Shown here: in pieces, positions 775 through 26,998 of the stretch
Layout of the letters: every line of letters starts with the position of its first letter
How positions within the stretch are numbered: position 1 is the stretch's first letter
Virus record (IMG/VR): IMGVR_UViG_3300044684_000224
Span: 14,820 to 78,819 of that record
Direction: 5' to 3' (one strand)
From: a virus
DNA: 64,000 nucleotides
The notes under the pieces: generated by a model
Databases searched by the model: none
Seen by the model: the letters and a program-made list of their open reading frames with translations, nothing else
Told to the model about the DNA's origin: nothing
Made by a program: the position numbers and the translations under genes

Positions 775-1059
775 ATGGACGAGCATGACGAGGGCCACGA
801 GTTGGTGATGCCGTTCGTCACCGTGGCCACAGTGGGCGGTCCGCACGACGACGAGGCGTACACGGCCGGCTGGGAAATGGGCTCGCTCGACGCCGAGCTC
901 CAGCATGCCGCGCCGGCCATAGTGGAGCGCACGATCCACGAGTGCAACGCGAAACAGGCCGACCTGATCGCGATGCGGCATGGCTACCTCGTGAACCTCT
1001 ACAACCTCGGCGACGGGTGGATGTCGCTGAAGCTCACGAAGCAGTCGGAGCGTGTGTGA
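775..1059 (+). CDS. Hypothetical phage protein
   Basis: 94-aa ORF tightly packed in the operon. Confidence 0.6.
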   Translation: MDEHDEGHELVMPFVTVATVGGPHDDEAYTAGWEMGSLDAELQHAAPAIVERTIHECNAKQADLIAMRHGYLVNLYNLGDGWMSLKLTKQSERV

Positions 1060-1358
1060 TGCAGTACGGATGGAAAGGCGCCCGCGCCTACCTCGTCGTC
1101 GGTGTGCGGCTTCTCGCGCTGGGCGTGCTGCGCCACTTCGGCGTCAAGGCGTACGACTTCGACGACAACACGGCCGTACGTGCCTACGTCCTGTCCTGCG
1201 CATTCGAACCGGTGGTGACCGAGCGTGCTGAGACAGTCCAAGTCGGCTGGCAATGTCCGCACGCCTCAATGACAACCGGCGGCCTCAGTGGCATCGAGGC
1301 GTTGAGTTCGACGTGTGGCTGCCGGATGACGCCGGTCTACGACATGGCGAGGCTGTGA
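1059..1358 (+). CDS. Hypothetical protein
   Basis: TGATG coupling at both ends. Confidence 0.5.
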   Translation: MQYGWKGARAYLVVGVRLLALGVLRHFGVKAYDFDDNTAVRAYVLSCAFEPVVTERAETVQVGWQCPHASMTTGGLSGIEALSSTCGCRMTPVYDMARL

Positions 1359-1527
1359 TGTCCCGCTGGCGCACCCCGCGCGACTGGTACCGCACCCGTC
1401 TGGCGATGCAACGCTCCCAGGCCCAGGAGCCCTGGACATGTGGGGCGTGTGGCCGCTACCTGTACGGCTACATCCGGCACTGGCACTACACGCTGAGGTG
1501 GATCTCGGGATGGAAGGAGCCAGCGTG

Positions 1528-1743
1528 ATGAACCTCAACGGCACCAACGATTCGGCCGATCGGATCGCGGCGCTGGAACGGCAGATCGCTGCGATGCAGG
1601 CCGAACTGGCTCTGCTGAAGGGTGCACGGGCCGTGCCGACAGACGGCATGTGCGCGTCGTGTCGGCTGGCGTTGCAGCGCGGCGGGTCGGCGGTGTGCAA
1701 CTGCACCACGTTCGCCCCGAAGATCATGTGCGCGGTGACGTGA
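1528..1743 (+). CDS. Hypothetical protein (coiled coil plus Cys cluster)
   Basis: Coupled start; DRIAALERQIAAMQAELALL followed by CASC and CNC. Confidence 0.5.
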   Translation: MNLNGTNDSADRIAALERQIAAMQAELALLKGARAVPTDGMCASCRLALQRGGSAVCNCTTFAPKIMCAVT

Positions 1744-2069
1744 TGGTACTGACGAGCGATCCACATGATCCGCGCCTGACGCATGGCGTCGACGCCGAGC
1801 CGGTACCGCAAGCGCCGGCATATCTGGTGCTGTCCGACGAGGAACGAGCCAAGGGATTCGTGCGGCCGGTTCGCCGGTCCTATCAGCATCAGGCGTGCGG
1901 GACGATCACGACGATGGGCCGGTCCATCGCCGAGACCTACGCCGCGCAGCCGACGTTCTACGGCGCGACATACTGCTGCGGGTGCAGGAAGCATCTGCCG
2001 GTCGGGCCGGACGGCGAGTTCGTCTGGGTGGAGAACGGCGAGCCCACCGACCTGAAGGTCGGCGCCTGA
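1743..2069 (+). CDS. Conserved phage Cys/His-rich hypothetical protein
   Basis: EERAKGFVRPVRRSYQHQACG and FYGATYCCGCRKHLPV; a family I recognise from phages, function unknown; TGATG coupling. Confidence 0.7.
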   Translation: MVLTSDPHDPRLTHGVDAEPVPQAPAYLVLSDEERAKGFVRPVRRSYQHQACGTITTMGRSIAETYAAQPTFYGATYCCGCRKHLPVGPDGEFVWVENGEPTDLKVGA

Positions 2070-2451: not shown

Positions 2452-3308
2452 GGACTCTCTACGATTCGACCAACTGGTCCGCCATCCCGACCACGGCGCA
2501 GATGGTCGCCGGCTACGTCCCTCCGTCCGGATTCGCCTGGCCCCAGTCCGCATGGAACCGGTTCCCGAACAGCATCCATGTCCGGATCACCCCGCAGGTG
2601 TCCACCACTGGTGTGGGTGTGCAGGTGCTGGACGTGGAGCAGGGCGACGCCACCCCGGCACAGGCGCCCGGCTGGGTGATCACCCAACGTCGGCTGGGCC
2701 AGGCCCCGACGGTCTACTGCTCGGCCGCACTGTGGCCCACCGTGCAACGGGCGTTCACCGCGGCCGGTGTGCCGCACCCCTGCTACTGGATCGCCGCCTA
2801 CCCCGGCGGCGGCCCGACGCTGCCCACCCTGAACGGCATCACCGCCGTGGCCCACCAGTACGCCGACCCGACCACTTCGGGCGGCGACTACGACCTGTCC
2901 GTCGTGGCCGACTTCTGGCCCGGCGTCGACCAAGGAGGAAACATGACGACCCCAGTCCAGATCGACCTCAACCAGCCGCTGCCGGACCCGGCGTCCGTGG
3001 CTGGCACCGGCACCGTCGGCGAGGCACTCACCGTGATGCTCGGCGGCATCGCCGGCAAACGCAACGCCGGCGCCGGCGCGGTCGAGGAAGCCCAGATTGA
3101 CGCCGACCTGCACAACGTCCTCGCCGCCGTGGCTGGCGCCGACTCCGACGTCAAGGCCGGCATCGCCCAGGTGGCCTCTGCCATCGCCGCACTCCCGGCC
3201 GGACAGCCACCGACCGATGCCCAGATGCAGGCCCTCACCGCCGCGGTCACCAAGGCACTGCCCGGCTACACCGTCAACATCACCCCAACCGCCGGGAGCA
3301 CCTCATGA
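2448..3308 (+). CDS. Putative endolysin (GH25/DUF1906-like glycoside hydrolase)
   Basis: LYDS, LDVEQGDATP, PTVYCS, YWIAAY, AHQY and YDLSVV motifs of GH25-like barrels; precedes a holin-like gene. Confidence 0.65.
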   Translation: MRTLYDSTNWSAIPTTAQMVAGYVPPSGFAWPQSAWNRFPNSIHVRITPQVSTTGVGVQVLDVEQGDATPAQAPGWVITQRRLGQAPTVYCSAALWPTVQRAFTAAGVPHPCYWIAAYPGGGPTLPTLNGITAVAHQYADPTTSGGDYDLSVVADFWPGVDQGGNMTTPVQIDLNQPLPDPASVAGTGTVGEALTVMLGGIAGKRNAGAGAVEEAQIDADLHNVLAAVAGADSDVKAGIAQVASAIAALPAGQPPTDAQMQALTAAVTKALPGYTVNITPTAGSTS

Positions 3309-3496
3309 GCCGCTACGCCAAGGCCATCGCCGCACTGCTCGGCGGGCTCACCCGGGCCGTGGTGATCGGCATCCTCGCCCTGGTCCACGTGCACATCGAC
3401 CCGACACTGGCGGCCGGGATCTGCACCGTGCTCGCCACCCTGGCCACGATCATCGCCCCGGCGAACAAGACGGCCGCCAAGCCACCGGCTGCCTGA
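3305..3496 (+). CDS. Holin-like small membrane protein
   Basis: 63 aa, two hydrophobic helices, YAKAIAALLGG N-terminus, basic tail, ATGA-coupled to the lysin. Confidence 0.65.
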   Translation: MSRYAKAIAALLGGLTRAVVIGILALVHVHIDPTLAAGICTVLATLATIIAPANKTAAKPPAA

Positions 3497-3581: not shown

Positions 3582-4238
3582 ATGTCCAACATCCAACTGT
3601 TCAGCAACGACGAGTTCGAGTTGTCCGTCGAGTACATCGACGACACGTTCCGCGCGTACGGTCCACATCTGGCACGCCAACTGGCGTTTCGGGACGCGTA
3701 CGACCTCGTCCGCAACCTGGAGTCTGACGAAAAGACGCAGGTCGAGACGCACCGGACTGGTCCGGTGCCTGTTGACCAGCAGATATGGTGGCTGACCGAG
3801 CCGGGATTCTTCCGCGTGATCTCGCAGCGCCAAGTGGCTCGCATCAAGGACAGCGAGACCCGCGACAGAGTGCGCCGCTTCCAGCGGTGGGTGTTCCACG
3901 AGGTGCTGCCGTCGATCCGGCGTCACGGTGCCTACGTCATCACCGAGCCGGCATCGCTCACCTGGGAGCAGACCGCGCAGCGCTTGTACCAGATGTACGG
4001 CCTGCCGCTGTGTGCCGCGCAGATTACCGGCACGCTCAAGTCCGCCGGGGTACTGCGCCAGAACGGGAACCCGTGCGTGAAGTACCGAGACTGGTTCTGG
4101 ATGACCGGCACCGGAACGGTGAACGTGCTCGACTTTGTGCTGCCGAAGATCGCGGCCAAGCTGACGGAGACGCGTTCGAAGATGCTGGAACGCCAGCAGT
4201 GGTACCAGCTCCGGCTACAACTCGATCCGTCACCCTGA
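3582..4238 (+). CDS. BRO-N family antirepressor-like protein
   Basis: LTEPGFFRVI and RFQRWVFHEVLPSIRRHGAY, the Bro-N signature; GGAGAAGG RBS. Confidence 0.85.
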   Translation: MSNIQLFSNDEFELSVEYIDDTFRAYGPHLARQLAFRDAYDLVRNLESDEKTQVETHRTGPVPVDQQIWWLTEPGFFRVISQRQVARIKDSETRDRVRRFQRWVFHEVLPSIRRHGAYVITEPASLTWEQTAQRLYQMYGLPLCAAQITGTLKSAGVLRQNGNPCVKYRDWFWMTGTGTVNVLDFVLPKIAAKLTETRSKMLERQQWYQLRLQLDPSP

Positions 4239-4268
4239 GACCGGCCACGCGCCCAGAAGGAGCACCCG

Positions 4269-7931: not shown

Positions 7932-8777
7932 ATGGCTGGAAACAGGGGCACCGCACACGAACTCGGCGCTGCCCTGCGTGCACTCAGGAGTCGCGCCGGG
8001 CTGACCACGCGCGCACTCGGCGACAAGATCGACGCTAGTGCTACGAACGTCTCCCACTGGGAACGCGGCGAGCGGCTCATTGCCGAACGACGGCTCGTGC
8101 GCTTCCTCGACGCCGTAGATGCCACCCCTGACGAGAGGGAAGAGTTGCTCGGCCTCCGTCGCCACGCGGACGGCCCCGGCCAACTCGTAGCCGGCACGCC
8201 GAGCATCGGCGCCCAGTTGGCCCAACTGATCGAATACGAGCAGGTCGCGCGCAGGATCACCGCCGTCGCGCCGCTACTCGTTCCAGGTCTCCTTCAAACG
8301 GGCGACTACGCTCGCGCGACCCTGAAGCATCACCGTGACATCGACACGCGTGTGGCGCTACGCCTCGGGCGCCGCGACATCTTGACGCGCACCAGGGAGC
8401 CTGCCGAGTTGGTCGCACTGATCGACTCCGAGGTGCTGGTGCGGCCAGTCGTGCGCGGACAGCCGTCCGTCATGGCTGAGCAACTACGCCATCTGCTCAC
8501 GATGAGCGCCCGGAACAACATCACGATTCAGATCGTGCAGAGCGCGACGGTTGGTTGGACACCAATCCTGGCCGGACCGTTCATCCTGCTCGAATTCGCC
8601 ACCGCGACACCAGTCGTGCACTTGGAGCACCACAGTGCAAGTGCGTTCCTATGGGAGGAGGAGGACGTCCAGCGCTTCACGGCTGCGGCCGAGGAGATCC
8701 GTAACGCGGCGATGACCCTGGAGGATTCATCCAGGGTCATCGCCGAGATCGTCAATGGGATGGAGACGACAACATGA
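7932..8777 (+). CDS. XRE HTH regulator with DUF5753 (Scr1-like) domain
   Basis: N-terminal HTH (LRALRSRAGLT..VSHWERGER); LVPGLLQTGDYA and RLGRRDIL motifs of DUF5753. Confidence 0.9.
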   Translation: MAGNRGTAHELGAALRALRSRAGLTTRALGDKIDASATNVSHWERGERLIAERRLVRFLDAVDATPDEREELLGLRRHADGPGQLVAGTPSIGAQLAQLIEYEQVARRITAVAPLLVPGLLQTGDYARATLKHHRDIDTRVALRLGRRDILTRTREPAELVALIDSEVLVRPVVRGQPSVMAEQLRHLLTMSARNNITIQIVQSATVGWTPILAGPFILLEFATATPVVHLEHHSASAFLWEEEDVQRFTAAAEEIRNAAMTLEDSSRVIAEIVNGMETTT

Positions 8778-8959
8778 CGGTACCAACCAGAGCGTCGAGG
8801 TGGCGGAAATCGAGCCGCAGCGACGGACATGACACCTGCGTCGAGGTCCATCACGACCTGACCGCAGTCCGCGACAGCAAGAACACGGCCGGTCCGACCC
8901 TGCGCGGTGACGTGACCGCGCTCGTCGCGGCCATCAGGGCCGGCAAGATCGGCCGATAG
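8774..8959 (+). CDS. DUF397 domain protein (Scr2-like partner)
   Basis: WRKSSRS..CVEV..AVRDSKN..GPTL. Confidence 0.92.
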   Translation: MTVPTRASRWRKSSRSDGHDTCVEVHHDLTAVRDSKNTAGPTLRGDVTALVAAIRAGKIGR

Positions 8960-9003: not shown

Positions 9004-9528
9004 CTAGTTACTACCGATGGTCAAGCCGATACCAGCATGCGCCACGTCAGGCGTGAACACCTGCGTACCACGGTGCGATACCGTCACCGAATAGGACGCC
9101 TCGTTCAACGGGATGTCGGACACAGAGAACGGCAGTACACAACTGGGCAGGACAGTCCCCATATCCGGTACGCCCTCACCGAGTGCGCCAGTTCCCAGAA
9201 CCTGACCCTGTGGCCCGGTCACGACAACCGCAGTGCCCGGCACAAGATCCGAATACGGGCCTTCGCCCTGGCAGTTCGTGCTCGTCATCACCAAATCCGC
9301 AAGCCCGATAGTAGGCACCACTGTTAGCGAACCACGGAGCGTGAACGTCGCGGGCGCGCTCGGTGCAGGTTTCGACGTGAACGCACCGGACAGGGCAAGT
9401 GTCCCTATGATGATGACTGCGGCTAACGCTGCGCTGAGTACGCCGATTGCGATCCAGAGCGGGCGTCTCCTTGAGGGGAAACTCTGCGGCAGCGGCGACT
9501 GGGGTGGCGGTTCGAGCGGCATGGACAT
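9004..9528 (-). CDS. Membrane-anchored beta-rich protein
   Basis: Pro-rich N-terminus, one TM helix, two Cys in an Ig-like ectodomain. Confidence 0.65.
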   Translation of the reverse strand: MSMPLEPPPQSPLPQSFPSRRRPLWIAIGVLSAALAAVIIIGTLALSGAFTSKPAPSAPATFTLRGSLTVVPTIGLADLVMTSTNCQGEGPYSDLVPGTAVVVTGPQGQVLGTGALGEGVPDMGTVLPSCVLPFSVSDIPLNEASYSVTVSHRGTQVFTPDVAHAGIGLTIGSN

Positions 9529-12835: not shown

Positions 12836-13768
12836 ATGGTGAAAATCGTGTCCGACGAACTCTCTGACCTTCTGCGCAGCTTCCAGATCCACGTCCGTGC
12901 CGAGGGCCGCGCGCCGCGCACGGTGACCATCTACAGCCAGGCGGTCCAGTTCTTCGCCGCGTGGCTGACCGACCAGGGGCGCCCCGCCACGACAGACGAA
13001 CTGACCAAGGACAACATCCGGCGGTGGCTGGCCGAGTTGGGCGACACCAAGAAGCCCGGCACCGTACTCACCCGCCACATCGGCCTGCACAGGTTCGGCC
13101 GGTGGCTGGTGGCCGAGGAGATCCTGACCAAGCATCCGATGGACGGCCTGGAGCAGCCGCAGGTGCCCGCGTCGCCGGTGCCGGTGCTGTCGGATGAGCA
13201 ACTCGCCGCGTTGCTCAAGGCGTGTGCTGGGGCACGGTTCTACGACCGGCGCGACGAGGCGGTGATCCGGCTGCTGCTGGACTCCGGGCTGCGGGTGTCG
13301 GAGCTGTGCGGGCTGCCCCGGTGGAAGCCGGGCGAGGGGGGTGCCGCGGTGGGGATCGACGTGGCCGACCAGATGGGCATCGTGCTGGGTAAGGGCAGTA
13401 AGGCGCGGGCGTTCTACTTCGGTGCCCGCACGGCGCGGGCGCTGGATCGGTACCTGCGGGCGCGGGCCAAGCACCGGCACGCCGACAGTCACGCGCTGTT
13501 TCTGGGTGAGCGGGGTGCGCTGACCCCGGACGGTGTGCGGGAGATTCTGCGGGTGCGGGCAGAAACGGCCGGCATCGGGCATGTGCACCCGCATCAGCTC
13601 CGGCACACTCACGCCCATGACTTCCTGCTGCACGGAGGCCAGGAGCGCGACTTGAAGCGGCTGATGGGCTGGTCGTCGGACACGATGCTGGAGATCTACG
13701 GGGCGTCGGCCGCCGACGTGCGGGCGGCGTCGGCGGCGCGCCGGATGCGACGTGGCGATCGGGTGTGA
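12836..13768 (+). CDS. int: Tyrosine integrase/recombinase
   Basis: SAM-like N-terminus, LLDSGLRVSEL (Arg), GKGSK (Lys), HPHQLRH (HxxR), LMGW and EIY (catalytic Tyr). Confidence 0.93.
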   Translation: MVKIVSDELSDLLRSFQIHVRAEGRAPRTVTIYSQAVQFFAAWLTDQGRPATTDELTKDNIRRWLAELGDTKKPGTVLTRHIGLHRFGRWLVAEEILTKHPMDGLEQPQVPASPVPVLSDEQLAALLKACAGARFYDRRDEAVIRLLLDSGLRVSELCGLPRWKPGEGGAAVGIDVADQMGIVLGKGSKARAFYFGARTARALDRYLRARAKHRHADSHALFLGERGALTPDGVREILRVRAETAGIGHVHPHQLRHTHAHDFLLHGGQERDLKRLMGWSSDTMLEIYGASAADVRAASAARRMRRGDRV

Positions 13769-14586: not shown

Positions 14587-14991
14587 CTATCCGGTTCGCC
14601 GGCGCCGGAACGCGCGCTGTTCGTTGATCCAGTCCACGGCGTCGTTGAGGCGTTTCAGGGCCTCGTTCCGGCCGTGTTTGTCTTCCCAGAACTTGTAGAC
14701 ATCCATCAGTTCCCGCTGTTCCTCTGTGAGCGGCGGGGGCTGTTCTCGTTCCAGTGGCAGTGGGTCGCCGCCGGCAAGGACAGACTCGAACGAGCCGGGC
14801 CCTAGGCCGATCACCGGCTCCATCTGCGCGGCCTTGTGCGCCTGCGGCAGTCGTGTGCCGTCTTCGACGCCGGTCCAGGTGCCGCGGTCGACGCCCGCCT
14901 GCGCGGCCGCCGACCGGATGCTTAGTCCTCGCCGTGTGCGTTCTCGGCGCACTATCTCGGCGAGCCGTGCCCTGTGTCCCCCGACTGGCAT
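14587..14991 (-). CDS. Immunity repressor (CI-like XRE HTH)
   Basis: RERTRRGLSIRSAAAQAGVDRGTWTGVEDG; divergent from a Cro-like gene and near the integrase. Confidence 0.85.
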   Translation of the reverse strand: MPVGGHRARLAEIVRRERTRRGLSIRSAAAQAGVDRGTWTGVEDGTRLPQAHKAAQMEPVIGLGPGSFESVLAGGDPLPLEREQPPPLTEEQRELMDVYKFWEDKHGRNEALKRLNDAVDWINEQRAFRRRRTG

Positions 14992-15127
14992 GGTGGCTCC
15001 CTATTGCCCGGTTTGGTTGTGGACTCTAGTGGAACTTGGCCGCACTGTGTAACCCCTTCGCCACATGTTGACGTGTGTGGTCGAGGATGGTTGTGGAATC
15101 TGGTGGTACTTGGTAGCGTCCGGTGGC

Positions 15128-15370
15128 ATGGGACCGAATCCGCCGAATGTCGCCATCGACGGTGACGAGCTGCGGACGAGACGCAAGTTCGCGGGCTACT
15201 CGCAGATCGAACTGGCCGAGCAGGCGGAGATCACCAACCGCTACGTCAGTGAGATCGAGCGCGGCAACCGAAAGTTCGTGAGCCCCGCCGTGTTCGTCCG
15301 TCTCTGTGACGCCCTCGACATCCGACCCGACCAGCGGTGGAAGCTCGTCCGTTCGGCGGTGGCGTCGTGA
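15128..15370 (+). CDS. Cro-like XRE HTH protein
   Basis: LRTRRKFAGYSQIELAEQAEITNRYVSEIERG. Confidence 0.85.
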   Translation: MGPNPPNVAIDGDELRTRRKFAGYSQIELAEQAEITNRYVSEIERGNRKFVSPAVFVRLCDALDIRPDQRWKLVRSAVAS

Positions 15371-15639
15371 GCACCACACCCGCGCAACGCTCCGCCAACG
15401 CCTCCATCGCCGCGCACAGCATGTGGGCACGTTGCCCGGACCGGGCCAGACGTCTGCGCAACGCGCACGCCGCCCTGGAGGCCCGCATCGCCCGTGACTT
15501 CGGCATCCCGGCCGACCTGCCGCCGGCCGAGTACGCGACGCGGATCGAGTCGGCGAAGCGGGCCTACTTCGGGCGGCTGGCGCAGCGGTCGGCGAAGGCG
15601 CGGGCGGCGAAGCGGTTACGAGCGGGTGAGGCGGCATGA
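15367..15639 (+). CDS. Conserved actinophage hypothetical protein
   Basis: ASIAAHSMWA..AKRAYFGRLAQRSAKAR, a family I recognise downstream of Cro; GTGA coupling. Confidence 0.7.
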   Translation: MSTTPAQRSANASIAAHSMWARCPDRARRLRNAHAALEARIARDFGIPADLPPAEYATRIESAKRAYFGRLAQRSAKARAAKRLRAGEAA

Positions 15640-15916
15640 ACGCCCGCACCACCCCGCCCGGCATGGTCGACATCCGGCGCCGCCCCGACGAGAGCGCCGA
15701 GCAGGCCCTGACCGGTGACCCGGACGACAAGAAGTCGAAGCCGGTGGAGCAGTCGAAGCCGGCCGGGAAGGACGGACCGAAGTGACCTCGCAGCCCAGTG
15801 ACGACGAGATCTTGGACGGTCTGGCCCGGAACCTCAACCAGGGTGCTGAGCGGGCCGCTGAGGACCGGGCCACGCAGCGTGCTGCTGATGCGGTGAAGAA
15901 AGGGGGAAAGTCGTGA
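15636..15916 (+). CDS. Two tiny coupled ORFs (15636-15785 and 15782-15916)
   Basis: ATGA/GTGA overlap chain linking the Cro operon to the Cas12 gene. Confidence 0.5.
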
Positions 15917-17589
15917 GCGATTTCGATCTCAACCAGGCGGTCGCCGACGTGCCCCATTCGACCCCCCTGGCCGACTACGCAACAGTCGTCTATCAGTACG
16001 GATGCCCGCACTGGGCGGACTTTGACGACATCGCGATGGAGCAACTGCGGTTGGCTCACAACCTCCGTAACCGTCTTGTCGAGATCGAACTGGCACACGA
16101 GGCGGCGCTGGCCGCTGCTCTCGCCGAGGACCCTTCCGTTAGTGCCGCGCAGGCCGCGCTGGCGGATGCCGACCAGGCAGTGAAGGACCTGGAGGAGCGT
16201 CTGCTGCGGGAGCGGGTGACGGATCGGTCTCGCGTGGCCCGAGTTGAGACGAAGGGGGCCATCAAGGCTGCGCGTGCCGCGCGGTCGGCTGCCAAGGTGG
16301 CGCTGAAGGCTGCGAAGGCGGCTGCGCGGGCGACACAGCGGGAACGTCGTGGAGAACTCCGGGACGCCCACATGGCCGCGCTGACCCAGGCGCGTGCCGC
16401 TGCGGTTGCTGACGGGCTGTTCTGGTCGACCGCGACCGATGTGTTGGACCACCATCGGGTCGCGGCGAAGGCAGTGATCCGTAAGCGTGTCGCTGGCCAG
16501 CCGGCCCGGTTGCGGTTTCACCGCTGGGATGGGTCGGGGACCTTGACCACGCAGGTGCAGTGGCAGACGGGAGGCCCGCTGCCGTCGCCCGCCGCGCTCG
16601 CCGCCGGGTGGGGTGGGTTGGCGACGTTGTCGCCGTGCGGCGACCCAGCGGTGCGTCCCCGGGGCGCCGAGCGGTTCGGCGAGCTGGCAATGCGGGTGCG
16701 CAGCGCCGACCATGGCGGGGATCACCGGCTGGTCGTCCCTGTGATCTTGCACCGGTGGATGCCGGCGAATGCGGAGATCAAGCGTATTCAGGTGAGTCGC
16801 CGTGCGGTCGCGGGCCAGCACCGGCTGTTCGTGTCGGTGACCTGCCGTGTGCCGGCGCCGGTGCCGTCCCGGTCGAGGACGGCTGTCGCGGTTGATGTGC
16901 AGTGGCGCGGTGTCGGTGACGGCAATGTGCTGGTGGCTCGGGTGGGTGTGTCTGGCGGTCCGGTTCCTGCGCCGCCGGATGCGGTGCGCGAGTTGTGTGT
17001 GTCGCGTCCGGGTGGTGTGGACATGCACGCCAGTGCCGAGTGGCGGGCGGTCCTGGCCCGTGGTGAGCGTATCCAGTCGGTGCGTGACGAGATGCTGGAC
17101 GACCTGCGGCCCCGGCTGGTGGAGGCGCTGGCCGACGCGGCTGTTGCCGACGCGGTGGGTGTCACGGGTGCCGTGGTGGCGCGGTGGCGGTCACCGGGTC
17201 GGTTTGCGCGGTTGGCGCGCGTGTGGCCGCAGGATCATGCGCTGGCGGTGCCGCTGGAGTTGTGGCGCGCGCGGGATCGGCACCTGTGGGAGTTCCAGTC
17301 GCATGAGCGCGCCCAGATTCTGGGTCGGCGTCGCGAGGTGTACCGCTGTTTCGCGGCGTGGCTGGCGGGGCACGCGTCCGTGATCGTGGTGTCCGATGTG
17401 GATATCGCTGAGGCGCGGCGGCGGCCGGATGTGTGCCAGGACGATCCGCATGGTGCGCGTGGCGCGCGGCGTCTGGTGCAGTTCGCGGCGCCGGGGGAGT
17501 TGCGGGCGGCGATCGTGGCCGCTGCGGCTCGTCGGGGTGTTGAGGTGTTGTTCGCGTCCCAGTCAGCGACGACTGAGGTGGCGGCATGA
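15913..17589 (+). CDS. cas12m: Cas12m-like (type V-M, formerly V-U1) effector, C-terminally truncated
   Basis: Motifs shared with MmCas12m as I recall it: EQLRLAHNLRNRLV, long REC coiled coil, GLFWSTATDVLDHH, RLRFHRWDGSGT, PVILHRWMPANA, RuvC-I AVAVDVQWR, VVARWRSPGRFARLA, RuvC-II VIVVSD, FAAPGELRAAIV; adjacent to 36-bp CRISPR repeats. Confidence 0.85.
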   Translation: MSDFDLNQAVADVPHSTPLADYATVVYQYGCPHWADFDDIAMEQLRLAHNLRNRLVEIELAHEAALAAALAEDPSVSAAQAALADADQAVKDLEERLLRERVTDRSRVARVETKGAIKAARAARSAAKVALKAAKAAARATQRERRGELRDAHMAALTQARAAAVADGLFWSTATDVLDHHRVAAKAVIRKRVAGQPARLRFHRWDGSGTLTTQVQWQTGGPLPSPAALAAGWGGLATLSPCGDPAVRPRGAERFGELAMRVRSADHGGDHRLVVPVILHRWMPANAEIKRIQVSRRAVAGQHRLFVSVTCRVPAPVPSRSRTAVAVDVQWRGVGDGNVLVARVGVSGGPVPAPPDAVRELCVSRPGGVDMHASAEWRAVLARGERIQSVRDEMLDDLRPRLVEALADAAVADAVGVTGAVVARWRSPGRFARLARVWPQDHALAVPLELWRARDRHLWEFQSHERAQILGRRREVYRCFAAWLAGHASVIVVSDVDIAEARRRPDVCQDDPHGARGARRLVQFAAPGELRAAIVAAAARRGVEVLFASQSATTEVAA

Positions 17590-17703
17590 ACACATATGCC
17601 AGCGCGAAGGCTTCGTATTCGCGACAGCGACCAACTGGTCAGCTGGACGGCGATTTCGGTGAGCGTGGTGGAAATGCCAGCGCGAAGGCCTCGTATTTGC
17701 GAC
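17590..17703 (+). CRISPR. Degenerate mini-array (2 repeats, 1 spacer of 42 nt)
   Basis: 5'-eroded repeat 17590-17625 (last 30 nt have 2 mismatches) and repeat 17668-17703 (2 mismatches to consensus). Confidence 0.85.
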
Positions 17704-17737
17704 CCGTCCATGAACTGACCCACAAGCAGGAGGCGAC

Positions 17738-18241
17738 ATGAGCGTGACAGTGACAGTGCCGGACGACCCGATCTCGCACCAACTGACCGAGTTGATCCGC
17801 AAGGGCGCCACCCCGGAGGACGCGGCCACGGCCGTGCTGGAGCCCTACCAGCCGACGCCTCTCGCAGGCGAGGCGTGGCGGGTGGTGCGGGATGCGGCGT
17901 TGAAGATTTCACGGCTGGCGGCCAGGGCTGCGGAGGACCGCGCGTTCCAGCCGGCGGGGGAGCGCACCGCGCGGGAGGCACGGTTGGCGATTCCCCGGGT
18001 CCGGTTCCGGGTGGGCGATGGCACCGAGGTGGAGTGGGGTCGGGCGACTGTGACGCAGCATCAGGCACGGATCGCGTGGCAGCGCACCCAGATGGATGCG
18101 ATCGCCGTGGATATCGACCGGCACACGGGGGCGGTCGATTTGATCGAACAGCACGGGGTTTCCTGCCTGGACGACATTCCCAACTGGCCGGATTTGCTTC
18201 CTGGCGTGTTGGACGGTGCGAGCGGCTCGGTGGCGGCCTAG
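17738..18241 (+). CDS. Hypothetical protein embedded between the two CRISPR array segments
   Basis: GGAGG RBS; 167 aa; GDGTEVEWGRATVTQH..HGVSCLDDI; function not recognised. Confidence 0.75.
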   Translation: MSVTVTVPDDPISHQLTELIRKGATPEDAATAVLEPYQPTPLAGEAWRVVRDAALKISRLAARAAEDRAFQPAGERTAREARLAIPRVRFRVGDGTEVEWGRATVTQHQARIAWQRTQMDAIAVDIDRHTGAVDLIEQHGVSCLDDIPNWPDLLPGVLDGASGSVAA

Positions 18242-18398
18242 GTACTGGGGACCGCTCGCATAGGTGGGTTGATCTGGAGGTTTAAGCGCGGTGGAGATCA
18301 TGGTGACACGGGATGCGGTGCTTGCCGAGGGGTGCTCCGGGGGACCGCTCGCGTTGATCTCCGCTGCCGCAGGTCAGGGTTGCCAGAAACAGGTAGCC

Positions 18399-18805
18399 GT
18401 GGAAATGCCAGCGCAAAGGCTTCGTATTTGCGACAACGTCATCCGCGCGCCCTTGACGCGGGTGTCCGCCACGGTGGAAATGCCAGCGCAAAGGCTTCGT
18501 ATTTGCGACTTGAACCCCGCCTCCATCATCTCGACTTGGACCTGCGCGTCGTGGAAATGCCAGCGCAAAGGCTTCGTATTTGCGACGGGTACGGAGTGGA
18601 ACAACTTGGCGAGTTCGTCGACCGGGTGGAAATGCCAGCGCAAAGGCTTCGTATTTGCGACGACCGGTTGGTGGCCGCAGTCATCAAAGGCTGGAGTGGA
18701 AATGCCAGCGCAAAGGCTTCGTATTTGCGACTCGTCGGTCACCGGTCGCCCTCCTGTCGCAAGTCGCCGGTGGAAACGCCTGCGCAAAGGCTTCGTATTT
18801 GCGAC
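18399..18805 (+). CRISPR. CRISPR array, 6 x 36-bp repeats GTGGAAATGCCAGCGCAAAGGCTTCGTATTTGCGAC, 5 spacers
   Basis: Repeats start at 18399, 18474, 18551, 18626, 18696 and 18770 (last has 2 mismatches); spacers 39, 41, 39, 34 and 38 nt; 3' hairpin CGCAAA/TTTGCG followed by AC. Confidence 0.98.
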
Positions 18806-23596: not shown

Positions 23597-24343
23597 CTAG
23601 TCGCCGTCCACCGGCACGTCGGGACGCGGGCAGGCGCACGCGCGCCGAATGGCCTCCACGGTGTCGTCGGCTACACGGGCCAGTACGCGGGTGCCGTGGT
23701 GGATGAGGTCATGCGGGAGGACCACATCCTCCGGGAGGTCATCGATCTCCTTGCGGGACTCGCAGAAGTATCCGTCTCCGTACTCGATGCGCACGATGAT
23801 CCGCATGGGTCACGCCTTCTTCCGGGGCTTGATGGAACAGCGCCCGACGTGGTGTCCGGGCGCCGTGGGGGAAGAGGGTCAGTTCTCGGTTGGCGGCAGC
23901 CTCAGGTCGAGCACGCGACCGAGATAGGGATACGTGGCCATCTCCGCGTCTTGGTTGGTCCACTCGGCCGGCCGTCCGTCCGTCCAAAACAGCCACCACT
24001 CACCCGCGTACACGGCGACGCCGCTGCCCGCCGGCCAGTCGAATGCGCGCACATCGCCAACGGTATGGACCTTGAGCACGACGCCGTCATCCTCATCGGC
24101 CAGAACCGCGCCGTTCCATTCATACGCGCGGAGCCCTCGCTCCGCCGCGATCTTCCCTGCCAGGAGGCAGGCGGCGTGCTCGGTCGGCTCACCGTCGACC
24201 TCGATGATCTCGTCTACGGTCGGGTCACCGAGCGTGTAGATCTCGACGCGGTAGGCGTCGTCGTCGACGCTGTAGCCAACGGTGACGTACTGGGTGGTCG
24301 TCGGGTTGGTGACGGGCGTGAAGGTGCGGGTGCGTCCGGGCAT
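23597..24343 (-). CDS. Two leftward hypothetical genes (23597-23806 and 23879-24343)
   Basis: GGAGG RBS before ATG 24343; opposite orientation to the operon. Confidence 0.6.
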
Positions 24344-24373
24344 GGTGTCCTCCGTGTCTCTCGGTATGGCTCC

Positions 24374-24403
24374 AGTGTACCTACACCGGCATGTGTAGTG
24401 CAA
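24374..24403 (-). promoter_or_regulatory. Leftward promoter TTGCAC-N18-TACACT with palindrome CTACAC-N6-GTGTAG in the spacer
   Basis: Read directly; palindrome at 24381-24398. Confidence 0.55.
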
Positions 24404-24411
24404 CCGGGTAG

Positions 24412-24621
24412 CTACGACCGGCTGTCCTCGCGCTCGGCCGCAGCGATGATCGAGTCCACTGTTGGGCCACCGACACCCAACACCTTCGCGATCCGGTACT
24501 TGCTCCACTTCGCCTCGCGCGCTGCCATCACGGCAGCCTGTCGCCGCAGGCGGGCCGCGTCCGCCGCACGCATCGCGTCCTGCGCTTCCGTGAGCTCTCG
24601 TTCGATCTCAGCGTCATCCAT
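24412..24621 (-). CDS. Small HTH protein
   Basis: RRQAAVMAAREAKWSKYRIAKVLGVGGPTVDSII. Confidence 0.7.
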   Translation of the reverse strand: MDDAEIERELTEAQDAMRAADAARLRRQAAVMAAREAKWSKYRIAKVLGVGGPTVDSIIAAAEREDSRS

Positions 24622-24727
24622 GGGTGGAGGGTACCGCACATCACCAAGCGTGCGCACACATGTTGACGTAGGCACACTGGTATGTGTAAGGTCGAGCTAT
24701 CAGCAAGACCAGCAAGGAGCAGCCGAG

Positions 24728-25317
24728 ATGACCACCGGCGACCTGATCCCCTACATGGCGACCCAGCACCTCAACCTGGACGGCCCGACCGGTGCGAACG
24801 CCGCCCGCGACGCGCTTCAGGCGCTCGGCGACCGCGACTTCGAAAAGGCCCACTCCATCGAAGACGCCTTCGTGTGGGCCGTCATCCAGGCGATCGCGGA
24901 CGGCCACCCGGACCCGGTCGGCCTGGCCAAGTCCGCACTGGTTGTCCACGAAGCCGACTTCGCTCGCTACACCGCCTGAAGGAGGCCGAAATGACCACCG
25001 AGACCACCGCCAGTGACGAGTACCTCTGCGCCTGCGGGCACTCGAAGTTTGAGCACGCCGGTCGCACCCACCGTGGCATCTGCTACCCGTGCAACGGCAA
25101 CGGCGGTTCTGCGGGTGCGCCGGGGACCTACTGCTCTCGGTACCGCAAGCCAGTCACCACCGAGCAGGGCCAGTCCGTCTCCGAGGTCCCCGGCAAGCCG
25201 GGCCGTGTCATCACCGGACGACCCCAGAACGTCGAGATCCACAACCCGACGACGGCCGATCCGTTTGCCTTGGTCCCCGGTGCATATGGATACGACTGGG
25301 AGGTGGAGGACCGTTGA
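24728..25317 (+). CDS. Two hypothetical genes (24728-24979 and 24991-25317)
   Basis: AAGGAG and GGAGG RBS. Confidence 0.6.
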
Positions 25318-26498
25318 CGCTTACAGACCTACCCGAGACTTGGCTCACCATTCCTGGATTTGATGGCCGTTACGACGCGTCCTCGCTCGGTCGCATCCGG
25401 AGCAACGCGAGGACGCGCCACCCTAATAGGATCATGAAGTCTCATATGATCGAGAAAGGGAACGGGCTCAGGTATCGTCGCGTAGCGCTTAGCCCTAAGG
25501 GTGGACCCAATGTCGCGAGGCCAGTCCACGTCTTCGTGGCTAGCGCGTTCCACGGCGAGCGTCCGACGGGGCAGCACGTCCGCCATCTCGATGGCGACTC
25601 GCTCAACAACTGCGCGTCAAATCTGGCGTGGGGTTCCGTTTCTGAGAACACACTAGATCGGGTGCGACACGGAACCCACAACGAAACTAGGAAGACCCAC
25701 TGTCCTCACGGGCACGAGTACACGCCGGATAATACCTACCGTACACGCAAGGGTCACCGTATCTGCGTAACTTGCAAACTGGCCGATAACCGCCGTCGCA
25801 AGCGTCAACGAAGTCTCCTTCGGCGCGCCCAAAGGAACAGCGCGCTCGCCGCGCCGGCCGAACCCGTCACGAAGCCCAATCAGCAAATGACCATCAACGA
25901 CAGAAAGAGGCAGCGAAACATGCGGTTCAAGAAGGCAGCGCTCGCGGCGACCGGCGTGGTGGTGCTCATCGCGGCGACGGCGTGCACGTCGTCGAGTTCG
26001 GACAACGCGCAGATGCAGTCGCAGGCGGTCACCGAGAAGTACCAGGAGGCCAGTCAGAAGCAGGTGCCCTACAGGCAGCCCACGAACTGGCTGGAGCGCA
26101 CCGAACTGAACAAGCACCTGGCCCGGCAGGACGACCCGAACGCGATCCGCTACGTGGTGCTGATGACCCAGCAGGGTCAGGTGATCGCGCAGTACGTCAT
26201 CAAGGGCATGGTGTTCGACCCGAACAGCCAGCTGACCAACGACCAGCAGATCGTGTCCGGCTGGTCGGGCGGCTCGTCGTCCACCTACTACAGCCAGGTC
26301 GTGAACGCACCGGGCGACAACGGCACGTGGGGACCGGAGGCCGGCTCGGCGGCGTTCTTCACGCAGCAGGACGTGGAGGTGCAGATCCCGCCGGGCGTGT
26401 GGTGGGTCGAGTCGGACGCGCCGCAGAACTTCACGTCCACGCCGCTGCTGACGATCGCGGCCGACGCGACGCCCTCGACACACGCGGGCGGCAAGTGA
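25314..26498 (+). CDS. NUMOD4-HNH endonuclease in frame with a downstream lipoprotein (second start ATG 25920)
   Basis: WLTIPGFDGRYDASSLGRIRS (NUMOD4), VHVFVA..VRHLDGDSLNN..NL (HNH), THCPHGH; then MRFKKAALAATGVVVLIAATAC signal/lipobox with its own RBS. Confidence 0.8.
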   Translation: MTLTDLPETWLTIPGFDGRYDASSLGRIRSNARTRHPNRIMKSHMIEKGNGLRYRRVALSPKGGPNVARPVHVFVASAFHGERPTGQHVRHLDGDSLNNCASNLAWGSVSENTLDRVRHGTHNETRKTHCPHGHEYTPDNTYRTRKGHRICVTCKLADNRRRKRQRSLLRRAQRNSALAAPAEPVTKPNQQMTINDRKRQRNMRFKKAALAATGVVVLIAATACTSSSSDNAQMQSQAVTEKYQEASQKQVPYRQPTNWLERTELNKHLARQDDPNAIRYVVLMTQQGQVIAQYVIKGMVFDPNSQLTNDQQIVSGWSGGSSSTYYSQVVNAPGDNGTWGPEAGSAAFFTQQDVEVQIPPGVWWVESDAPQNFTSTPLLTIAADATPSTHAGGK

Positions 26499-26998
26499 TG
26501 GGACTGTGGCGTTCGGCCGACGGGTGGGCCAGCGATTTCCAGCGCAAGCCGGGGATCACCGTGTTCAAGGCGGTGTTCTGGATCGTCCTGCTGGGCGTGT
26601 TCGTCGTGGTGGTCCTGTGGACGACCGGCGTGGTGACCGCCCCGTGGAAGGGCAAGGGCGACGCCTACATCCAGAAGAACTCGGCTGACAACTGGGTCGC
26701 GGCGCAGCGCACGTTCCACCAGGAGAACAACGACTACACGGCGGACCTGGTGAAGATCCGGGACGCCAAGACGGCACTGACCCAGTTCGAGGCTGGCGCG
26801 AAGCCGCACCCGAACTCGATCGCCGCGTTCCAGTGGCAGCAGCAGGACACCAACCTGCGCACGACGCTGACCGGTCTGGAGCAGGGCTGCGAGCAAGTGG
26901 CCGCGAATTACGCGACCGACGCCCAGTCCTACCTGACGGAGTCGTTCCGGGACGCTGGCCTGCCGGCGACGCTCGACGCGGCTGCGTGTAGCCGATGA
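26498..26998 (+). CDS. Membrane-anchored coiled-coil protein
   Basis: One TM helix then helical domain; TGATG-coupled to the lipoprotein. Confidence 0.7.
   Translation: MGLWRSADGWASDFQRKPGITVFKAVFWIVLLGVFVVVVLWTTGVVTAPWKGKGDAYIQKNSADNWVAAQRTFHQENNDYTADLVKIRDAKTALTQFEAGAKPHPNSIAAFQWQQQDTNLRTTLTGLEQGCEQVAANYATDAQSYLTESFRDAGLPATLDAAACSR

Follow-up and report, generated by a model that had tools for sequence, protein, structure and literature searches.

Why would a temperate phage carry a CRISPR effector of the Cas12m family together with its own repeat-spacer array, inside the operon that begins with its Cro-like gene and with no genes for acquiring spacers? The question is raised by a 64,000-nucleotide (nt) stretch of viral DNA (the window, hereafter), bases 14820-78819 of the IMG/VR record IMGVR_UViG_3300044684_000224 (93,360 bp), in which a cas12m homologue, a small partner gene and two blocks of CRISPR repeats follow one another. 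Judged from sequence and predicted structure, the locus is probably a functional, adaptation-less, bind-only system for inter-phage conflict, derived from type V-M and residing in a temperate soil phage. Its parts and the two spacers with targets are as follows.

15913..17589, + strand: cas12m homologue without the TNB zinc finger and RuvC-III, 558 amino acids (aa), GTG start (sequence and fold match)
17590..17703, + strand: mini-array consisting of a 5'-degenerate repeat (17590-17625), a 42-nt spacer (17626-17667) and a second repeat (17668-17703); covariance model scores 52.5 and 52.4 bits
17738..18241, + strand: conserved partner gene, 167 aa, helical with one hairpin (homologues at the relatives' loci)
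18242..18398, + strand: leader-like region before the main array, with the 12-nt direct repeat GGGACCGCTCGC at 18250-18261 and 18344-18355 (sequence)
18399..18805, + strand: main CRISPR array, six repeats (the last with two changes) and five spacers (repeat search, covariance model)
18435..18473, + strand: spacer with a 39/39 match in the portal gene of IMGVR_UViG_3300044692_000039, 5' flank TTG
18662..18695, + strand: spacer with a 30/34 match in the large serine recombinase gene of IMGVR_UViG_3300044692_000039, 5' flank TTG

The spacers indicate what the system is aimed at. The first 24 nt of the spacer at 18435-18473 matched a single IMG/VR contig of 35,952 bp, and the gene containing the 39/39 site was assigned to the portal proteins (PHROG 2662, E = 6e-52). 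On the same contig, a BLAST search with the array region placed the spacer at 18662-18695 in a gene for a 486-aa serine integrase, with the first 16 nt (the end proximal to the protospacer-adjacent motif, PAM) matching perfectly. Both protospacers are preceded by 5'-TTG, in agreement with a TTN PAM (two sites only), and neither is flanked by repeats. With two of the five main-array spacers falling on one foreign phage beside the PAM of Cas12m2, there is therefore strong evidence that the array serves, or served until recently, as a functional set of guides against that phage. These two TTG-flanked matches in another temperate phage bear out the first-pass annotation (made from the letters of this DNA alone) in its proposal that the system is aimed at competing elements; for host genes, which it had named as the other possible target, no evidence was found. 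The carrier and the target contig also share three segments of 91-95% nucleotide identity (window 1055-1746, 2256-2939 and 3306-3493; target contig 24319-26503), and thus the two have exchanged genes recently and very probably use a common host. Carrier and target also occur together in runs that share one sample code and study (possibly one sequencing campaign), and this co-presence is suggestive only.

The remaining spacers gave no comparable result. The first 24 nt of the spacer at 18510-18550 had no match in IMG/VR; its first 22 nt matched three near-identical JGI contigs, a candidate rejected as chance because the match ends at 22 of 41 nt and is flanked by CGC. The spacer at 18587-18625 had no match in IMG/VR or the JGI metagenomes, and neither the spacer at 18732-18769 nor the mini-array spacer at 17626-17667 had one in IMG/VR. 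The array found no match among the INPHARED phages and only two chance-level matches of 31-32 nt (E = 0.1-0.4) among the PLSDB plasmids. The spacers of the related arrays L002, L031 and L010 had no match among the loci gathered for this analysis.

The protein that would use these guides is closest to the structurally characterised Cas12m proteins. It matched Cas12m2 (PDB 8hhl/8hio) over residues 27-550 (phmmer, E = 3.3e-59) and GoCas12m (PDB 8pm4; phmmer, E = 1.7e-52). Its AlphaFold (AF2) model is confident to residue 550 (predicted local distance difference test, pLDDT, 89.6; predicted template modelling score, pTM, 0.80), and Foldseek matched it to 8hhl and 8pm4 with template modelling (TM) scores of 0.77 and 0.79 (E = 8.5e-39), whereas the next-best folds, Cas12f and TnpB, remained below 0.4 (TnpB structures 0.36-0.39). 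The Cas12m2 residues W152/Q195/Q197 are retained as W171/Q214/Q216, and H269/R270 as H280/R281; in Cas12m2 the former read the TTN PAM and the latter contact the scaffold of the CRISPR RNA (crRNA) (PMC10442227). No usable family for the effector was found in Pfam, NCBIfam or PHROG, no close relative in IMG/VR by single-sequence search, and by profile search of IMG/VR only a Phytoactinopolyspora provirus. A weak NCBIfam guided_TnpB match (E = 0.19, 10.9 bits against a cut-off of 100) could hint at a transposon-type TnpB working with an omega-RNA rather than a CRISPR effector. However, the protein is far closer to Cas12m than to TnpB in both sequence and fold, is nested within Cas12m in the tree described below, and adjoins a repeat-spacer array with spacers matching foreign DNA; a TnpB identity is thus ruled out for practical purposes. 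The Cas12m-like assignment of the open reading frame (ORF) in the first-pass annotation, with generic TnpB as the outcome that would have overturned it, is upheld.

It is at the C-terminus that the effector departs from its relatives. The protein was aligned with 15 database homologues and then with genes from the fetched loci. Full-length relatives (597-683 aa) carry a C-terminal H/CxxC...CxxC zinc finger and a DQD motif, the Cas12m2 equivalents being H549, C552, C569 and C572 of the TNB domain and D579 of RuvC-III (PMC10442227). All 12 proteins of the truncated clade end 10-25 residues past an RGV(E/R)V motif and contain neither CxxC nor DQD, and the window effector ends near the position equivalent to Cas12m2 residue 550. 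Its RuvC-I residue is Asp328 and its RuvC-II position is Ser494, a position that is variable in the truncated group (K, H or A in others). With Ser494 at RuvC-II and both RuvC-III and the zinc finger absent, the RuvC site is incomplete and binding is therefore the only plausible activity, so that the protein would bind DNA without cleaving it. The complete RuvC fold with its three, often non-canonical, triad positions and the inserted TNB zinc finger that structurally define type V-M are lacking here, yet the locus, lying outside that definition at TNB and RuvC-III, very likely works like Cas12m.

The truncation could have a trivial cause. The locus could be a decaying relic, consisting of a 3'-truncated cas12m pseudogene, a leftover array and an unrelated passenger gene; in favour of this, the ORF end coincides with the start of the first, 5'-degenerate repeat, and the effector goes unrecognised by Pfam, NCBIfam and PHROG models. 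Nevertheless, in a maximum-likelihood tree the 12 truncated proteins fall on one side of a branch with support of 99/97, their sister being a full-length protein and the group as a whole lying among H-D-D-type Cas12m; because they form one supported clade, the truncation represents one ancient, retained event and not a broken gene. The 12 ORFs are intact, 36-48% identical and share the truncation point, the model of the window effector is confident to residue 550, the five core repeats are identical with one spacer perfectly matching its target, and the partner gene is conserved alongside in 11/11 loci with downstream DNA. A relic is accordingly very unlikely. One clade member, L030 (342-1595), is only 417 aa long and also lacks the REC2 coiled coil (about residues 65-123 of the window protein), and the partner gene follows it. 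Published work divides Cas12m into four clades according to three triad residues (PMC10442227), and a TNB-less Cas12m lineage was not found described in the literature, of which our coverage is incomplete.

The partner gene is the second constant of this clade. It lies directly 3' of the truncated cas12m, mostly overlapping its stop codon, in every locus with readable downstream DNA (11/11), recognised by homology in L002, L003, L028, L029, L030, L031/L047, L032, L048, L049 and the window, and by position only in a JGI contig with protein P0005. The closest homologues are 38-56% identical, and sizes in the clade are about 165-220 aa. In contrast, the gene is absent from five full-length Cas12m loci (L008, L010, L012, L033 and L035); TNB loss and partner presence are thus linked by co-occurrence only. 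A profile search of 1.84 billion representatives gave 612 family members, and the three distant ones examined lie in phage early or structural regions with no Cas12m, and therefore the partner was recruited from a wider phage protein family. Its model (pLDDT 94) consists of helices and one hairpin. No usable family was found in Pfam, NCBIfam or PHROG, and structural comparison gave nothing at E <= 0.001 (Foldseek against PDB), only uncharacterised proteins at E >= 0.05 (AFDB clusters), helical hairpins throughout at Z <= 5.4 (VIA-align wide) and viral hypothetical proteins (atlas search). A predicted complex of effector and partner scored 0.00 in a run without controls and weighs neither way. 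The partner probably works with the effector, with which it may be in contact. More speculatively, zinc-finger-less Cas12m and its obligate partner could form a two-protein RNA-guided silencing module, in which the partner might replace the lost TNB/RuvC-III in trans (keeping the non-target strand in place and the R-loop stable) or serve as an effector arm, and the in-frame mini-array might couple the expression of both genes to crRNA processing; we consider this possible rather than likely.

The repeats have the properties expected of guide RNA precursors of type V. Eight copies of a 36-nt repeat lie on the + (coding) strand, in the order repeat then spacer. The first-pass annotation had rightly placed CRISPR repeats 3' of cas12m, but made no mention of the partner gene that separates them into two blocks. 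The main-array spacers measure 39, 41, 39, 34 and 38 nt, the five core repeats are identical, and main-array repeats score about 57 bits against 52 bits for those of the mini-array. With the covariance model, only these eight copies were found in the window, and no lone repeats outside the two blocks. At the 3' end of the repeat, a 6-bp stem with a 9-nt loop is followed by AC, as expected of a type V crRNA handle. In an alignment of 14 copies from the window phage and a related contig, this stem (columns 14-19/29-34) is paired in 100% of cells and shows compensatory double changes in four of the six pairs, which none of 500 shuffles reached and from which slid controls were far off. A pseudoknot of three pairs (columns 9-11/20-22) is possible and uninformative because its columns are invariant.

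Both hairpins of the mini-array are kept as well, one via a compensatory change and the other via a G-U pair. The mini-array insertion is exactly 156 nt long and open in one frame (17586-17741, 51 codons), with ATGA overlaps at both ends. The GC content at third codon positions (GC3) of this ORF is 0.60, unlike genuine genes, and owing to this non-coding-like value the mini-array is read as RNA rather than as protein-coding; its placement possibly preserves translational coupling to the partner. A mini-array between cas12m and the partner was seen in this phage only. In the clade, cas12m is followed by the partner and the partner by the array, which in L002, L028, L031/L047 and L048 starts within a few bases of the partner stop; no repeats were found in L029.

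Repeats elsewhere are more irregular. In L002, a related Logan contig, lone repeats occur at 7952-7987, 8772-8807 and 9394-9429, within the methyltransferase and cas12m ORFs; their hairpins are kept by compensatory changes (covariance model 45-49 bits), and those in the cas12m ORF, translated in frame, form insertions in two loops of protein P0007. At L008:2713-4047 (also L013 and L014; IMG/VR), at least 28 repeat-model matches lie beside a full-length Cas12m with a period of 47-50 nt, leaving 11-14 nt between the 36-nt matches and therefore implying unusually short spacers or a shorter effective repeat. L007/L011 (IMGVR_UViG_3300032770_000005, 152,857 bp) contains several long arrays in which the Cas12m-type repeats are heterogeneous (period about 73-75 nt) as well as further, scattered copies, and L007:22-150 is the end of a Cas12m zinc-finger region. 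In L010, a related viral Cas12m array, the neighbouring spacers at 4147-4183 and 4220-4256 are identical, which suggests that adaptation-less arrays may grow by duplication.

The lone repeats of L002 and the mini-array bear on a different role for the effector, acting mainly on the nucleic acids of its own phage or host, either as a TldR-like regulator or as a binder of repeat hairpins in its own mRNA, with the mini-array as the mRNA handle and defence secondary. TldRs are nuclease-dead repressors derived from TnpB that have shed the zinc finger and the RuvC C-terminus, with some encoded by prophages and some tightly linked to a neighbouring non-nuclease gene (PMC10705468). The C-terminal loss of zinc finger and RuvC in the window effector is the hallmark of TldRs, and prophage carriage is shared in part; structure-preserving repeats lie alone inside two ORFs of L002, and the mini-array of the window sits exactly between two coupled genes. 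On the other hand, a test for a CreR-like self-guide found nothing of note in the 93 kb of the phage itself, where the best candidates were seed-only matches of 13-15 nt with no TTN flank, and the window has no lone repeats outside the two blocks. Moreover, two spacers match a foreign phage with a proper PAM. Unlike TldRs, TnpB descendants that repress a host gene with a single omega-type guide, the window effector derives from Cas12m and has a multi-spacer array with foreign-phage targets; neither TnpB descent nor a single guide at a host promoter was found. Own regulation as the main role is therefore improbable.

When the system acts would depend on its position in the genome, for which the following features are relevant.

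12836..13768, + strand: tyrosine integrase (Pfam Phage_integrase, 2.6e-23; PHROG 1 integrase, 8.7e-38)
14587..14991, - strand: CI-like helix-turn-helix (HTH) repressor candidate, divergent from the Cro-like gene (Pfam HTH_31, 1e-7; coding-like GC3 0.77)
15065..15370, + strand: Cro-like HTH gene, first of the rightward operon (Pfam HTH_31, 2.6e-11; HTH_3, 4.8e-9; PHROG transcriptional repressor/regulator families)
15337-15639, 15636-15785 and 15782-15916, + strand: three small ORFs between the Cro-like gene and cas12m (ORF list; GC3 0.84, 0.94 and 0.73)

The record encodes a large terminase (TerL), portal, head-maturation protease and major head protein, as well as a tape-measure-like protein of 1553 aa; together with the integrase and the divergent HTH pair, these structural genes identify the carrier as a temperate tailed phage. 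Completeness of the 93,360-bp record was estimated at 81% by CheckV, and the GC content is about 66%. As first annotated for 64 kb, cas1, cas2 and cas4 are missing, which now extends to the whole record: the Cas1, Cas2 and Cas4 Pfam profiles found no match in it, and the positive controls fired. The window contains no tRNA genes or Rfam families. A 26-nt direct repeat (TGGTTGTGGA-type) occurs in three copies at 15014-15113, covering the intergenic region of the HTH pair and the start of the Cro-like ORF, and its copies are candidate operator sites of the immunity switch. The stretch is most completely represented in soil and rhizosphere metagenome runs; an independent Logan assembly is identical to the window over 15000-18427, and contigs of other soil runs contain only short fragments of the locus.

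The chain of overlapping start and stop codons that was said to link the Cro-like gene to cas12m is present: the Cro-like ORF overlaps the next ORF, and stop/start overlaps follow at 15636/15639, 15782/15785, 15913/15916, 17586/17589 and 17738/17741. No terminator-like site was predicted along the chain from the Cro-like gene to cas12m, a promoter scan restricted to the sigma-70 consensus found nothing, in the leader included, and the three small ORFs had no family match in Pfam or PHROG scans. The relatives likewise carry the module among their rightward early genes, where it follows a cro-like gene and a methyltransferase in L002 and WhiB in L003. Because the module sits in a Cro-side operon with overlapping codons, it is most likely expressed alongside the early lytic genes, upon infection or induction. 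For induction timing, which is deduced from the order of the genes, their codon overlaps and the absence of a predicted terminator, our confidence is lower than for the functional reading as a whole.

Prophage-borne defence genes are commonly expressed in the lysogen. The same machinery could thus be expressed there, driven by a leader promoter or by read-through, and provide superinfection immunity that protects the host from related phages. The main array is indeed preceded by a 157-nt leader, and targeting of portal or integrase would equally stop an incoming temperate phage. Against this, there is no gap 5' of cas12m, which is joined by codon overlap to the genes downstream of the Cro-like gene, neither a terminator nor a promoter-like site (sigma-70 consensus) was found 5' of it, and L002 and L003 also carry the module among rightward early genes. 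Lysogen immunity is consequently a realistic alternative, and the less likely one.

Taken as a bind-only inter-phage system, the locus would operate as follows. The 558-aa Cas12m homologue would bind crRNAs cut from both repeat-spacer blocks, each crRNA consisting of the repeat 3' hairpin/pseudoknot followed by the spacer, would recognise a 5'-TTN PAM (TTG observed), and would clamp the matching DNA with no cutting, given an incomplete RuvC (D328, S494, no third residue, no zinc finger). Its target would be a mosaically related temperate phage, in whose portal and serine-integrase genes it would block transcription and/or replication, probably silencing them, in the course of inter-phage competition. 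Produced alongside the early lytic genes, upon infection or induction, it could favour the carrier by silencing portal and integrase of a co-resident or co-infecting relative. The partner that accompanies the zinc-finger-less clade would probably act with the effector.

Several points weigh against this reading. Without TNB and the last RuvC helix, a Cas12m might no longer fold or bind DNA. In Cas12m2, it is the RuvC/TNB groove that holds the non-target strand (PMC10442227). The integrase-gene match contains four mismatches, and three main-array spacers as well as the mini-array spacer have no convincing target. No RNA run containing the locus was found among the sequencing runs, and the leader at 18242-18398 could have its own promoter and thereby make lysogen expression possible.

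Much of the locus agrees with known type V-M systems. Adaptation genes are typically absent from V-U1/V-M loci (PMC11013384). Full-length Cas12m processes its own pre-crRNA, binds very tightly and without cutting at targets with TTN- or C-rich PAMs, and halts plasmids and phages by preventing their transcription and/or replication (PMC11013384, PMC10442227). With Cas12m2 of Mycolicibacterium mucogenicum and GoCas12m of Gordonia otitidis the window locus shares the protein family and fold, the PAM-reading and crRNA-contact residues, a 36-nt repeat with a 3' stem and possible pseudoknot, the TTN-type PAM, the lack of adaptation genes, carriage on a mobile element and the expected bind-not-cut interference. 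Unlike Cas12m2, the window effector has neither the TNB domain (H549-C572 in Cas12m2) nor the final RuvC segment (D579 in Cas12m2) and has lost the RuvC-II acid; unlike full-length Cas12m loci, its clade always has the extra conserved gene of about 165-220 aa; and unlike plasmid-borne type V-M, it resides in a temperate phage, inside the Cro-side operon.

Phage carriage as such has precedents. V-M systems are known from "some prophages", and virus-borne mini-arrays used in inter-virus conflict have been reviewed (PMC11656645). The window locus resembles these mini-arrays in having spacers against related viruses and no adaptation module, but it brings its own effector, whereas they mostly borrow that of the host. 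For MvCas12m of myxophage MV-1, described in a 2026 preprint (bioRxiv 10.64898/2026.09.14.751636), no protospacers were found; the protein has its full length of 610 aa and an intact D-E-D triad. Both are phage-encoded Cas12m proteins with an adjoining array and no cas1/2/4; the window effector differs in its truncation, its partner gene and the two PAM-flanked protospacers in a rival phage. Since prophage V-M and the myxophage Cas12m have already been published, phage-borne adaptation-less Cas12m is a known kind, and the novelty implied by the first-pass annotation was overstated, adaptation-less V-M (PMC11013384) likewise having been reported. The new parts are the monophyletic TNB-less lineage, the obligate partner gene and the rival-phage targets with PAM.

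These parts carry the significance of the locus. The two protospacers provide direct sequence evidence for the aim of a phage-borne Cas12m, for which the one published phage case had no targets. The truncated clade is a naturally occurring branch of Cas12m in which the zinc finger and the final RuvC segment have been lost and a partner gene has become fixed, in parallel to the path from TnpB to TldR but inside a CRISPR system; it is relevant to the question of which parts of the Cas12 scaffold are needed for RNA-guided DNA binding. The partner is a candidate for a new Cas12 accessory protein. The effectors of this lineage (417-580 aa) are very small candidates for CRISPR interference (CRISPRi) or base-editor scaffolds, and the 417-aa type without REC2, if active, would be among the smallest natural programmable DNA binders.

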